This document shows, in pieces, positions 12,477 through 64,000 of a DNA stretch of 64,000 bases (position 1 is the stretch's first letter; every line of letters begins with the position of its first letter). The notes under the pieces were generated by a model. That model did no database searches. It saw nothing but the letters and a program-made list of their open reading frames with translations, and had not been told where the DNA came from. The stretch covers positions 160,001 to 224,000 of the forward strand of contig CAWBMV010000034.1 in assembly GCA_963789955.1 (NCBI GenBank), given 5' to 3'. The position numbers and the translations under genes are program-made. Source of the DNA: an uncultured Candidatus Rokubacteria bacterium. GTDB taxonomy: Bacteria; Methylomirabilota; Methylomirabilia; Rokubacteriales; CSP1-6.

Positions 12477-14084
12477 TCACTCGACGAGCTTGCCGTACTC
12501 CAGCTTCAACACTCGGTCACCGAGATGGTAATAGCGGTCGTCGTGGCTGATGACGAGCACGGTCTTGCCCCGGGCCCGCAGCTCCGGAAGGATCTGGCGG
12601 TAGAAGATGTCGCGGTAGTGCGCGTCCTGGTCCGCCGCCCACTCGTCGAAGACGTAGATCGGCCGGTCCTCCAGGAACGCCGTCAGCAGCGCGAGCCGCT
12701 TGCGCTGACCCTGCGAGAGCGCGATCGTCGAGAAGCGCCCGCCCTCCACGCGCACCTTGGCGTCGAGCTCGAGCCGCACCAGGAATTTCCGGGCGCGCTC
12801 GTCGAGGCGGTCATCCGCGAGCCCGAGCAGGCTGTCGAACAGGTAGAAATCGGAGAACACCGGAGAGAAGTGCTGGCCATACCATTCCCGGTTCTTGTCG
12901 TCGATCAGCTGCCCGTTGAGCCGGATGGCGCCCCGAGTCGGCGGATAGAGCCCGGTCAGCACCTTCATGAGCGTCGATTTGCCGCTGCCGTTGCCACCGA
13001 CCAGAAAAACCAGCTCGTTCGGCCGCAAGGTGAGGTCGAGCGGACCCAGGACGAAGCTCTCTGCCGCGTCATCGCCGTACGAGAAGACCACCCCATCGAC
13101 CTCCAGCTGCGCGACGGAGGCAGGGGCGCCACGACTGGTTCACCCTCCGCGATGGCGGGCCCTGACAACGAGATACCGAGATCCCTCACCTTCTCGAGCG
13201 CGATGCGGCCGCGGGCGAGGATCGGCCAGGAGTCCATGAGGCTCCACACGGGCGTCATCATGTAGAGCGTGACGAGCACGTAGCCGGTCAAGGTCTCCCA
13301 GCTCATCGCGTGCAGCCGGGGAATGGTGAAGAGCAACACGCCGAGCAGCGCGTAGAAGAGGAGCTGATTCCAGCTCGCCGCGACGACGTGGTGGCGCACC
13401 CCGCTCATCGAGGCTTGCCGTAACGTCTCGAGCGTCGGGTCGACCCGCCTGGTCACGAACTCGCGACGCCGGCCCGCGTGGACTTTGAGCTCCTTGATGC
13501 CCTCGGTCAGCGCCCGCAAGTGCTGAAAGAGGAGCTCGCGCGTATCCCGGGCGCGCTGGAGGTGGCGAAAGGCCCGGGATTCGAGCAGGCGATGAACCGC
13601 GGCGCCGGCTACCACCAACGTGATCACTCCCAACAGAACCGGCCAGGACAGCCAGGCGAGGTACACCGCGCAGCCGATCAGAATCGCGACGTTCATGGCG
13701 AGGGTCGGAATGTTGATCGTCGCCCAGCCGATCATCGCGACATCATCCGTCAATGTCGTCAGAACTCGCGGGATGCCGACCTCTTCGAGGCGCCGCAGGG
13801 GAGTTGCCAGGACCTGCCGGCAGAGGTTCGCGGACAGGCGCGTCAGCGTTCGCTCAGCGAAGTAGTTGAGCAACATCTGCGCGCAGCATGTTGCTGCCGA
13901 CCTTGGCGAGGAGAAGCCCGGCGAAGCCGGCGGCGAGGAGACCGCTTCCACCCTGGCCTCGCGCGAGCGTGTGGTTGACCAGCGCGATCAAGGCCGCGCT
14001 GGCAGCCCCGCTCAAGAGGCTGACGCCGGTGGCGGCGACCGCCAGGATGCGCTCACGCCGATCGATGAACGACAGGAGGATCAG
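12477..14084 (-). CDS. Cyclic-peptide export ABC transporter (SyrD/PvdE/YojI family), frameshifts near 13100 and 13885
   Basis: TM domain (LEEVGIPRVL..LTDDV, GIKELK) plus NBD with GGNGSGKST, LSQGQRKRLAL, DEWAADQD, ISHDDRY. Start approximate (CTG overlapping the NRPS stop). Confidence 0.9.
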
Positions 14085-61847: not shown

Positions 61848-64000
61848 CGTGAGCCTGCTCCTCGCGGTCGCGGCCGGACGCGGGCCGGGCGCGACGCGTC
61901 GCCCGCGAGCGGCGAGCCGCTCCGCGGCGATCGGCCTCGTCCGTCTCGGCCGGCCGAGGCTCGGCGCCGGCGCCGAGGCGGGCCGCCAAGGTCGCAACCG
62001 TCGGATGCTCGTAGAGGTCGGTGAGCGCCACGTCCCGGTTGAGCGTCTCGCTCAGTCGGCGACCCAGCTGTGCGATACGCAGCGAATCGCCGCCGAGGTC
62101 GAAGAAGTTGTCGTCGACGCCGATCGTGGCCAGCTCCAGCACCTCGCGCCAGATCGAAGCCACGACACGCTCCAGCTCCGTCCGCGGTGCGATCGAAGCC
62201 TCCGGCTTGCCCACCTTGCGCAGCGCATCGCGATCGAGCTCGCCGGCGGGCGTTCGCGGGACGTGACCGATCTTGACGCCGGGACACGTGGTCGCGGTGC
62301 CGAAGTCGTCCGGCAGCGTGTCCGGTGACGGAAGCTCCATGGGCTGGACCGTCGGCCCCCCGAGGTATGCGCGGAGTGTGCAGGCCCCGGCCCGGCCGCC
62401 CTGCAGATACGAGCGGATGTGCCGGCTGCCCTCGTCGAGGCCCACGAGCACGTGTCCCGGCGGCTGCGCCAGGCTGACCTCGAGGGCACGCAGCGCGTCT
62501 TGCGCCGTGAGAGCCCGGTAGCCCCGAGCCCGGGCCAGATCCTTCTTCTTGTAGCCGCGACTCATTCCGCGCTCGTCCCAGAGACTCCAGGCAACGCTGT
62601 AGCTGTTCATCGAGCCCGCCGCGCGCTGGTATTGCGCGAAGCTGTCGAGAAAGGCGTTGGCCGCCGCGTACGCCCCGACGCCAAAGCCGCCGAACTGCCC
62701 GTTCACCGAGGACGACCCGATGAAGATGGCGCGGGGTCGCTCGGCGAGTAGCTCGTGGACCGCCCAGGTGCCGCCGACCTTCGCGCGCCCCAGCTCCTTC
62801 AGACTCTCGCGGGTCTCGTCGACCAGCGGACGCTCGGCGTACGCGCCCGCCTGGTGGATGACTCCGTCCAGCTCGCGGCCCCATTCGCGGCACGTGCGCT
62901 CGACTGCCGCTTTCAGCGCGGACGCATCGCACACGTCGACTGCCTCGTATCGAAGCCGGGTACCCAGTGCCTCGAGGCTCCGGTACGTCGCGATCCGATC
63001 CGCCACCGAGTCGTCGAGAGTCTGCGGCGACAGGGTGTGTGGTTGCGGCAGCGCCGTCCGACCCACGAGAAGGACGCTGGCCTCGTACTCCTCGATCAGG
63101 TGCCGGGCGATCACGGCACTCACGCCGCCGAGGCCGCCCGTCAAGACGTACAGGCCGCGGTGCTTGAACGGTCGCGCTCCCGGGGGCGCGACCGCGACGC
63201 GCTCGAGACGGCCAACGTGGCGGTCACCGCCGCGATAGGCCACTTCGGGATCAGACGATCCTGCTCCCATCTCGAACAGGACTCGGGCCGCATCCTCGAT
63301 CGACGCCGGTATCGGCAGATCGAGGTGTCGCACGGTGAGCGAAGGAATCTCCTGACGCGCGGTTCTGAGCAGCCCCAGCAGTGCGCCCGATTCGGGCGCG
63401 ACGACCTCGTCGGCGGCCACGGCCTGCGAGTGGCTCGACACGACCAGCAGCCGCGCCGCCATCCGACGCCGCGCGAGCGCTTGCACCATGAAGAGCGCGC
63501 TCGTGGTCGCCCGGTCCACCGCCTCCTCGAGATCCCGTACACTCGTGAAGCGCCGAGCGGATGCCGGGTACGTCCAGAGATGCACGACGTCGTACGCCTC
63601 GGTGTCGGATGCCGGCAGCTCCTCTAGAAGGCGGTCGTAGTCTCGAGGATTCTCGGCATCGATCCGATAGCCGTCCGTGTCGCGCGCGAAGCGCGCGCCC
63701 CGGACCACCCGTATGGGGGCCTTGTCGATGGACGCGAGCTCGGCGCAGAGGCGATCGCCGAGTCCGGCCTCGTCGACGAGAACGAGCGGTCGCGGGCCGA
63801 TCGATTGGTCCCGGCGCGTCGCGGCCCGTCTGCGCCACACGAGCCGATGCACGGAGGACGCGGAGTCGGTCGCGGCGTCGGCGGGAGAGCCGGCGCGCAG
63901 CTCGCCGCGCTCGAAGCGCTGGCGCAGCTCGGCACGCTGGATCTTTCCGATCGATGTCTTGGGGATGTCGGCTCGGCTCACGGGAACGAGATGCTGCGGG
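61837..64000 (-). CDS. Alpha-keto-acid-type NRPS module, C-terminal part: (A)sub-KR-pseudoAsub-T (runs off right edge)
   Basis: IPKTSIGKIQR; KR TGGLGG, SSVNGQFGG..GAYAAAN; post-KR VPRTPAGELDRDAL; T FFDLGGDSL; Arg-rich tail. Confidence 0.85.
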   Translation of the reverse strand, partial: PQHLVPVSRADIPKTSIGKIQRAELRQRFERGELRAGSPADAATDSASSVHRLVWRRRAATRRDQSIGPRPLVLVDEAGLGDRLCAELASIDKAPIRVVRGARFARDTDGYRIDAENPRDYDRLLEELPASDTEAYDVVHLWTYPASARRFTSVRDLEEAVDRATTSALFMVQALARRRMAARLLVVSSHSQAVAADEVVAPESGALLGLLRTARQEIPSLTVRHLDLPIPASIEDAARVLFEMGAGSSDPEVAYRGGDRHVGRLERVAVAPPGARPFKHRGLYVLTGGLGGVSAVIARHLIEEYEASVLLVGRTALPQPHTLSPQTLDDSVADRIATYRSLEALGTRLRYEAVDVCDASALKAAVERTCREWGRELDGVIHQAGAYAERPLVDETRESLKELGRAKVGGTWAVHELLAERPRAIFIGSSSVNGQFGGFGVGAYAAANAFLDSFAQYQRAAGSMNSYSVAWSLWDERGMSRGYKKKDLARARGYRALTAQDALRALEVSLAQPPGHVLVGLDEGSRHIRSYLQGGRAGACTLRAYLGGPTVQPMELPSPDTLPDDFGTATTCPGVKIGHVPRTPAGELDRDALRKVGKPEASIAPRTELERVVASIWREVLELATIGVDDNFFDLGGDSLRIAQLGRRLSETLNRDVALTDLYEHPTVATLAARLGAGAEPRPAETDEADRRGAARRSRATRRARPASGRDREEQAHDVE

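Follow-up and report, generated by a model that had tools for sequence, protein, structure and literature searches.

Closest described systems

The closest described systems resemble parts of the biosynthetic line that we analyzed. This line is a hybrid of polyketide synthase (PKS) and non-ribosomal peptide synthetase (NRPS) modules, with ten single-module genes (M0 to M9), and it lies in a bacterial genome (G000) of 6.8 Mb that is 87% complete, with a contamination estimate of 5%. We analyzed a 64,000-nucleotide stretch of this genome (G000:C34:160001-224000), which we will call the window; coordinates above 64000 are in the extended sequence and are contig positions minus 160000. Most named homologues of a dehydratase that flanks the line (86-90% identical) carry the label Candidatus Rokubacteria or Methylomirabilota, while NC10 and Acidoferrum each appear once, and the host is most likely a relative of Rokubacteria. 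The reading that we favor, with moderate confidence, is that a Rokubacteria lineage gained this translationally coupled ten-module line in a single block of 56.4 kb, and that the line makes and exports a macrocyclic depsipeptide. We directly observed the order of the domains, their motifs, the scar of the insertion, the distribution of the family, and the residue pattern of the terminal thioesterase (TE).

The loading module M0 (extended 66039-61837, of which 61837..64000 is in the window) shares its A-KR-T layout (adenylation, ketoreductase, and carrier domains) and flanking pseudo-Asub pieces with the StsA/cereulide-type modules (PDB 6ULW and 6ULX). It matches StsA (6ULW) with E = 5.7e-233, and it also matches the A-PCP structure of McyG (4R0M). 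As expected for a StsA/CesA-type keto-acid module, a hydrophobic residue (Val) replaces the amino-binding Asp235, the Gly-Met motif is present, and a KR follows the A domain. The pocket of M0, VGVWIGASG, is identical at 7 of 9 positions to that of StsA (IGVWIGASA, as read from the alignment). According to PMC13643306, Val for Asp and the Gly-Met motif are tied to the recognition of 2-keto acids, and the substrate of StsA is 2-ketoisocaproate. The starter of M0 is probably leucic acid, derived from 2-ketoisocaproate. In contrast to the StsA/cereulide type, M0 primes a fully reducing and methylating PKS module, not the condensation (C) domain of an NRPS.

For the fully reducing modules, the closest match is to the cyanobacterial PuwB-type modules (puwainaphycin). 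These have the same set of domains (ketosynthase, acyltransferase, dehydratase, C-methyltransferase, enoylreductase, ketoreductase, and acyl carrier protein, or KS-AT-DH-cMT-ER-KR-ACP), with a malonyl AT, a cMT, and a His-type KR. A PuwB-type module is 41% identical, over the module, to P0021, which is a relative of M1. In its lipopeptide line, PuwB extends a fatty acid once, while here there are four cMT modules in series.

The non-reducing module M2 resembles the KS-AT-MT-ACP methylating modules of epothilone EpoE, neoantimycin NatC, didemnin, and yersiniabactin HMWP1 (which was matched at 35%). In non-reducing cases, these modules form a methylated ketone; the lines around them differ from this one. 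Because their outcomes include both mono- and gem-dimethyl carbons, the methyl count at M2 could be either. Similarly, microsclerodermin and bistramide/lagriamide have a Gly module followed by KS-AT-KR-ACP (to give 4-amino-3-hydroxybutanoate), as in M7 and M8, with other polyketide and peptide parts.

The lipodiscamide cluster of 'Entotheonella' likewise combines PKS and NRPS modules, with a geminal dimethyl group made by a cMT and a hydroxy-acid module of the A-KR kind, but according to PMC12858407, it has an acyl starter, O-methylation, an internal hydroxy acid, and four PKS modules, and the order does not match.

Overall, every part of the line has a known counterpart in how it would work: loading as in StsA, cMT modules of the PuwB type, a methylating module without reduction, a unit made from Gly and a ketide, and an exporter of the SyrD type. 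What is new is the combination of these known domains, within a sizeable uncharacterized family. In the protein, plasmid, and literature searches that we made (MIBiG was outside their coverage), we found no characterized pathway with this order of modules, which agrees with an earlier note on this DNA that could not match the line to a known compound.

Architecture of the line

We called domains with Pfam scans of 60 minus-strand frames and with frameshift-aware alignments. All ten single-module genes are on the minus strand, and the order of transcription is a type II TE, a phosphopantetheinyl transferase (PPTase), M0 to M9, and an ATP-binding cassette (ABC) exporter. At 7 of the 9 junctions between modules, the stop and start codons overlap by 4 bp (the M1/M2 and M4/M5 junctions were read across an indel); M0 and M1 overlap by 11 bp, and M3 and M4 are separated by 7 bp. 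The earlier note had described ten single-module proteins with mostly 4-bp overlaps, ending in a TE and a SyrD-type exporter, and the domain calls and alignments bear this out.

After M0, the polyketide part begins with M1 (54236..61847; KS-AT-DH-cMT-ER-KR-ACP), whose KS is in the post-NRPS clade. M2 (49804..54239) is KS-AT-cMT-ACP, without a KR; M3 (42001..49807) has the same domains as M1; and both have many indels. M4 (35228..41993) is KS-AT-DH-cMT-KR-ACP and M5 (29615..35231) is KS-AT-DH-KR-ACP. The peptide part has M6 (26268..29618; an open frame) and M7 (22919..26271), each with a docking domain and then C-A-T; M8 (18303..22922), which is KS-AT-KR-ACP, again with a KS in the post-NRPS clade; and M9 (14081..18306), with a docking domain, C-A-T, and the TE.

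All six PKS modules have the GHSxG motif in the AT, and the active-site Cys and the HGTG motif in the KS. The second His of the KS was also read in the PKS modules, which gives Cys-His-His; for M2, M3, M5, and M8 this was read across indels. With integral ATs, a carrier in each module, a PPTase, and a terminal release domain, the line is a cis-AT modular PKS/NRPS hybrid. The ATs are of the xxFHS (malonyl) type, and the four consecutive cMT domains have intact S-adenosylmethionine (SAM) motifs, so the methyl groups come from SAM, as the earlier note had proposed, and not from methylmalonyl-selecting ATs.

The cyclic-peptide ABC exporter (12477..14084, minus strand, 2 indels) is of the SyrD/PvdE type. 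It is TIGR01194-like, and both of its pieces score under the curated cut-off. Its probable CTG start overlaps the stop codon of M9 (14081-14084), and the related contig L186 (see below) is arranged likewise.

Upstream, the cluster extends just ~3.6 kb past position 64000. By Pfam, this part has a Sfp/HetI-type PPTase (extended 66785-66036, minus strand) and the type II TE (extended 67561-66782, minus strand). The earlier note saw no PPTase, regulator, or tailoring gene in the window and stated that the cluster continues past 64000; we add that the PPTase is just 2 kb outside the window and that the continuation is short. Among the island open reading frames (ORFs) that were scanned with Pfam, none was a regulator or a tailoring gene.

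At the head of the block is a gene of the dienelactone hydrolase family (extended 68834-67815, minus strand), which continues in frame from the 21 initial codons of the flanking dehydratase that lie in the left repeat (see below). Homologues of this gene are found in 21 of 183 genomes of the order, a tally that includes G165, on which none of our claims depends, and none were seen in cousin clusters; it is probably a passenger. Between it and the type II TE, an AT-rich spacer (extended 67570-67810) carries a TCACA-T-TGTGA palindrome. This spacer is probably the cluster's own promoter region, and when the head of the island was scanned for sigma-70 sites, neither a promoter nor a consensus was found. 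Also, the Gly modules M9 and M7 are 82% identical over 1.5 kb of DNA (15415-16892 and 23433-24871), which is a module duplication.

Predicted product

The A domain of M6 has the code DAWFLGHVV, which we take to be for Leu, and M7 and M9 both have DILQLGVIW, which we take to be for Gly. We infer that these domains select Leu, Gly, and Gly. The KRs of M1 and M3 have His at the position of the catalytic Tyr. The same is true of 73 of the 79 homologues that could be scored (another 41 of 120 were unscored), including a protein named PuwB; because His is normal in these homologues, we treated both KRs as active. The KR of M5 (with GVMQY) lacks the LDD motif, as do those of G087, G084, G179, and G252. 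By a general rule for KRs, M5 could leave a Z alkene beside the amide. And since M2 has no KR, it would leave a ketone next to a carbon with one or two methyl groups.

By colinearity, M0 would adenylate a branched 2-keto acid (most likely 2-ketoisocaproate) and reduce it to the 2-hydroxy acid. M1 to M5 would then add five malonates with SAM-derived methyl groups, and M6 to M9 would add Leu, a 4-amino-3-hydroxybutanoyl unit (Gly and malonate, via M7 and M8), and Gly. The predicted skeleton is R-CH(O-)-CH2-CH(Me)-CO-C(Me)1-2-CH2-CH(Me)-CH=C(Me)-CH=CH-CO-Leu-NHCH2CH(OH)CH2CO-Gly; the earlier note had arrived at the same skeleton from the order of the modules. The TE, which lacks the canonical His, would load the chain on its Cys and close a 24-membered lactone at the hydroxyl of the starter. 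The ABC protein would export the product, the PPTase would prime the carriers, and the type II TE would edit. With an isobutyl group and a gem-dimethyl carbon, closure on the starter oxygen gives a 24-membered ring of about C33H55N3O7, with a computed [M+H]+ of 606.411; 592.396 and 578.380 are further candidate [M+H]+ values, and the seco acids would be heavier by 18.011. The 24-membered depsipeptide macrolactone is a prediction as to its substrates, its methyl count, and its ring closure, and as to the activity and expression of the line.

Thioesterase and proposed ring closure

The TE of M9 (14084..14896, minus strand, without indels) has a Cys nucleophile (GACIGG), Glu at the acid position, and Asp in the column of the catalytic His of the PG-x-H motif (PGHDSG). 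It is a Cys-type TE (GxCxG), and its residues are not those of the canonical Ser/Cys-His-Asp triad. In a profile alignment, the conserved Asp of its DSG motif lies opposite the His of AB3403 (4ZXH). All 11 TEs in one alignment have the Cys. The structure model is a confident alpha/beta hydrolase (predicted local distance difference test score of 88.7), and Foldseek matched it to ordinary TE folds.

This pattern is common among its relatives. We considered the 150 best matches among representatives at 50% identity: 81 had Cys and Asp, 9 had Cys and Asn, and 21 had Cys and His, while all 23 with Ser had His. The Cys/DSG pattern is also found in 93 of the 120 listed longer proteins, and none of these 120 carry the name of a characterized pathway. 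It extends outside of this family of clusters: the second NRPS on contig C1 of G000 has it too. A literature search, with most subscription papers outside its coverage, found no description of a His-to-Asp class of Cys-type TEs. (The earlier note had overlooked both this Cys TE without the His and the flanking direct repeat.) A search of plasmids with the TE gave 30 records, of which the 20 listed were at 30-36% identity.

The described Cys-type TEs MacB-TE, ObiF, SulM, and AB3403 (4ZXH) share the GxCxG elbow and the alpha/beta hydrolase fold (PMC13288461 and PMC10510592). They differ from the M9 TE in the His column: MacB-TE has a Cys-His-Asp triad and 4ZXH has His, where the M9 TE has the Asp of its DSG motif. 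According to PMC13288461, Cys-type TEs account for ~2% of TEs, and the Cys of MacB-TE is required for cyclization, which is exclusive, while the His-to-Ala mutant is less active. We counted the exclusive cyclization and the lower activity of the mutant in favor of our main reading.

Several points weigh against an active line that closes the 24-membered lactone. In the canonical triad, a hydroxyl nucleophile is activated by a His; this His is missing from the TE and is kept in the cousin TEs of G038, G179, and G257. The hydroxyl from M8 is a second candidate nucleophile. We also inferred ~151 indels in the island, while its flanks are only slightly above controls that compare congeners to each other. 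The site in L186 lost the biosynthetic genes, so the block is dispensable. And both the enzymatic activity of the line and its product are predicted from sequence.

In the likeliest alternative, the line is active, but its His-less Cys TE forms no large lactone and instead releases a linear acid, closes on the M8 hydroxyl, or uses an outside nucleophile. The strict pairing of Ser with His, and the prevalence of Asp where there is Cys, fit with this alternative. So does the presence of the same type of TE at the end of many unrelated lines, such as fusions of thiamine pyrophosphate (TPP) enzyme domains with A-T-TE or the second NRPS of G000, which suggests that the TE has no necessary tie to a hydroxy-acid starter. 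However, the family as a whole retains a reduced hydroxyl dedicated to the starter (here the KR of M0 provides it; in most cousins the first PKS module has a KR), and the exporter belongs to the cyclic-peptide type. Furthermore, the TE of G000 has a non-conserved His one residue before the Asp, as do 8 of the Cys-containing rows among the 150, and this His could stand in. We consider release without a large lactone to be somewhat unlikely, and since the canonical His is missing from the TE, we treat closure on the starter hydroxyl, which the earlier note had suggested as a possibility, as inferred.

The second, small NRPS of G000 (C1, ~532-543 kb; L280:6700-18100) has an acyl-ligase-like domain, a carrier, two C-A-T modules, a TE (Cys/DSG), a SyrD-type exporter, and a PPTase. 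G000:C36 (L282:5700-8300) has a frameshifted A-T-TE gene with a Cys-type TE (GNCNGG). In P0424, P0445, P0270, P0473, P0488, P0497, P0501, and P0510, relatives of the His-less TE are fused to TPP enzyme domains (either TPP with A-T-TE or TPP-TE).

Frameshifts

Of the ~151 frameshifts that we inferred across M1 to M9, 123 are extra bases and 28 are missing bases. Is the island a decaying block of pseudogenes, on its way to the exporter-only state? The frameshifts are denser than in the flanks, and the relic allele in L186 shows that loss does occur. But the indels occur in clumps (of 53 one-kb bins, 25 are free of them, versus 3.1 expected under a Poisson distribution) and are mostly extra bases, and no in-frame stop was needed in the alignment of any module. 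The frames of M0 and M6 are open throughout. That of M1 stays open for 7 kb, followed by 13-14 indels in its last 900 bp: there are 13 breaks relative to the independent protein P0020 (94% identical, partial), which continues in one frame through the ACP. In P0021 (80% identical, full length), the KR and ACP are in one frame as well. M9 is open in its intact relatives P0436 and P0447, and the exporter is open in L186.

We also aligned contigs from four public runs (X1, X2, X3, and X17) to positions 44001-64000. Among the 12 of 114 indel rows that were displayed, X1, X2, and X17 lack the single extra bases at 54869, 54882, and 54971; all four runs lack the one at 55028; and X1, X2, and X3 lack the one at 55109. 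In other words, five of the indels in M1 are missing in independent runs. (X17 is an RNA run, and its short contigs are 98-100% alike on M1 and M3. We did not use this as evidence of expression, as contigs cannot show transcription. Runs that share only a small part of their sequence words were likewise left out as evidence of habitat.) Beyond the island, the flanks have 2.0-2.4 gaps per kb whose length is not a multiple of three, versus 1.6 in comparisons between congeners (G013 and G014), and some housekeeping genes are also split between frames. Most of the indels are probably assembly errors, and thin coverage of an island that is carried by part of the population would explain them. Decay of the island is unlikely.

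Insertion site

The block is flanked by a 94-bp direct repeat, whose copies at 12289-12382 (right, minus strand) and 68773-68866 (left, extended) are 93.6% identical. The repeat contains a TATAAT box, a ribosome-binding site, and the first 21 codons of a dehydratase gene (10617..12350, minus strand), which is a host gene that was inherited vertically; it is the target of the insertion and lies outside the cluster. The dehydratase is in the IlvD/Edd family of sugar-acid dehydratases and is closest to L-arabinonate dehydratase. It has orthologues at 92-97% identity in 9 of 16 congeners, and at all 9 of these loci the site is empty: a divergent gene of the short-chain dehydrogenase/reductase (SDR) family adjoins the dehydratase across a single copy of the repeat. 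The flanks are syntenic over 18-29 kb on both sides in G013, G014, G011, and G005. Because of the empty sites and this synteny, we consider the 56.4 kb between the repeats to be an insertion, and the flanking direct repeats with an empty site in relatives are those of a genomic island.

Next to the right repeat is a decayed 5' fragment of the SDR gene (12393..12457), with 78-85% identity to the SDR genes of congeners (at 6 of 9 loci), so the original duplication was at least ~260 bp. No integrase or transposase was found among the island ORFs that were scanned. We infer that the block may have inserted by recombination via the captured segment.

A third allele is known from a single metagenome contig, L186, which was the best of the 80 loci that were listed. 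Its order is the SDR gene, the left repeat, a remnant of ~40 codons from the C terminus of the TE, an intact exporter (84% identical), the right repeat, and the dehydratase. At L186:700-2700, the captured promoter and start of the dehydratase read in frame into the TE remnant, which is coupled to the intact ABC gene. The left copies of G000 and L186 both have Arg for Ser at codon 8, which is absent from the two right copies and the two empty copies that were aligned. The shared derived codon at the same site implies one old insertion, with ~54 kb of biosynthetic genes lost in one strain and the exporter kept.

Could the dehydratase instead belong to the cluster, for self-resistance or to supply a keto acid? 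It comes right after the exporter, in the same orientation, and the line starts from a branched keto acid. However, congeners without the island at this locus carry it as a core gene, it is closest to L-arabinonate dehydratases, and none of the cousin clusters that we scanned showed it next to the exporter. A role in the cluster is very unlikely. Self-resistance of the aspterric-acid type involves an extra, cluster-linked copy of the branched-chain dihydroxy-acid dehydratase. We found no such copy here: the gene is a core member of the sugar-acid subfamily, outside of the repeats, and its position is that of the insertion target.

The earlier note had also raised the chance of a chimeric join, and the assembly is noisy, with its contamination estimate of 5%, but a foreign contig joined into this metagenome-assembled genome is ruled out for practical purposes by the synteny around empty sites, by independent contigs including L186 with both junctions at the same site, by the ~6% difference between the repeat copies and the derived change that the left copy shares with L186, and by a GC content (0.703) that is close to that of the flanks (0.693-0.695).

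Short intergenic tandem repeats (extended 69730-69960), between the SDR gene and an acyl-CoA dehydrogenase gene, vary among congeners. On the other side, the dehydratase is flanked by peptidoglycan-recycling-like genes (window 2260-10170; GH3, NamZ, a SIS-domain protein, and a BadF-type kinase) that are syntenic in congeners. And ~15-20 kb past the island (L007:1746-10800), genes for a DUF1839 protein, an acyl-CoA dehydrogenase, and an ACP adjoin a type III PKS-like gene, a methyltransferase, and a flavin adenine dinucleotide (FAD) enzyme.

The family across genomes

Domain maps show that a polyketide core centered on M2 recurs in 14 other genomes from several phyla, with different starters and peptide tails. 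Nine of these (G038, G084, G087, G179, G251, G252, G254, G255, and G257) have a run of a fully reducing module, KS-AT-cMT-ACP, DH-cMT-ER-KR, (DH)-cMT-KR, and DH-(ER)-KR. In G253 and G256, the run is a shorter variant, and Gly-ketide modules come after it (a second Gly could be read in G253 only). The maps for G112, G258, and G260 end at contig ends or at the ends of the fetched sequence. G251 has the same type of keto-acid starter and the same architecture for M1, with another pocket (VAIFLGASG) and a two-residue tail. Most of the other cousins start with PKS modules, and tails range from 1 to 4 residues.

In a scan of species genomes, we found at least 75 loci, and 9 of the 75 that were listed show an M2-type module beside reducing modules. 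The titles of these genomes include Chloroflexota, Acidobacteria, Gemmatimonadaceae, and proteobacteria. Among 250 genomes in the class, a search with the M2-type AT-cMT-ACP from G038 showed that G038 and four others carry this module. Of 251 genomes of the class, G000 alone gave a match to the keto-acid A domain at E ≤ 1e-120.

A quick tree of 84 KS domains (leaving out the short row G257_Mm1) requires 24 changes in module position, versus 56 when shuffled (0 of 200 shuffles were as low). M1 of G000 pairs with M1 of G251, and M5 of G000 groups with M5 of G251 and G258. As related genomes are not independent, this tree shows clustering only. A DNA search of 41 relatives with M5-M6 gave patchy matches at 64-76% identity in the top rows and no orthologous block. 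Look-ups of eight sequences for exact matches found two of them. Matches to the cyanobacterial plasmids H1 and H2 were rejected as relatives because their architectures are different. For the cousin cluster of G038, a phage-type integrase lies ~1 kb upstream (L012:13952-14917), and a search with this G038 protein found one integrase-like match on another contig.

Implications

To our knowledge, no compound has been isolated from Rokubacteria, which are uncultured. Here, a bounded and self-contained operon comes with a predicted mass to look for, and the cousins G087 and G251, with few or no frameshifts, are suited to expression. The family is a natural series of module swaps around a fixed core, which is useful for engineering PKS/NRPS lines. 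The His-less Cys TE is a single domain of 270 residues that can be compared directly with the textbook triad. The predicted compound by itself would be routine genome mining; the locus with three alleles, the core that crosses phyla, and the class of TE add interest. More broadly, we suggest only tentatively that there is an undescribed cross-phylum family with a fixed methylated keto-dienamide core and swappable starters and tails, that the Cys/Asp TEs inside and outside of this family are a large class with an undescribed mechanism, and that the exporter may be kept after loss of the other genes because it protects or benefits non-producers. In any case, the three alleles of this one site (empty, full, and exporter-only) record how a large cluster was gained and lost in a lineage of soil bacteria.

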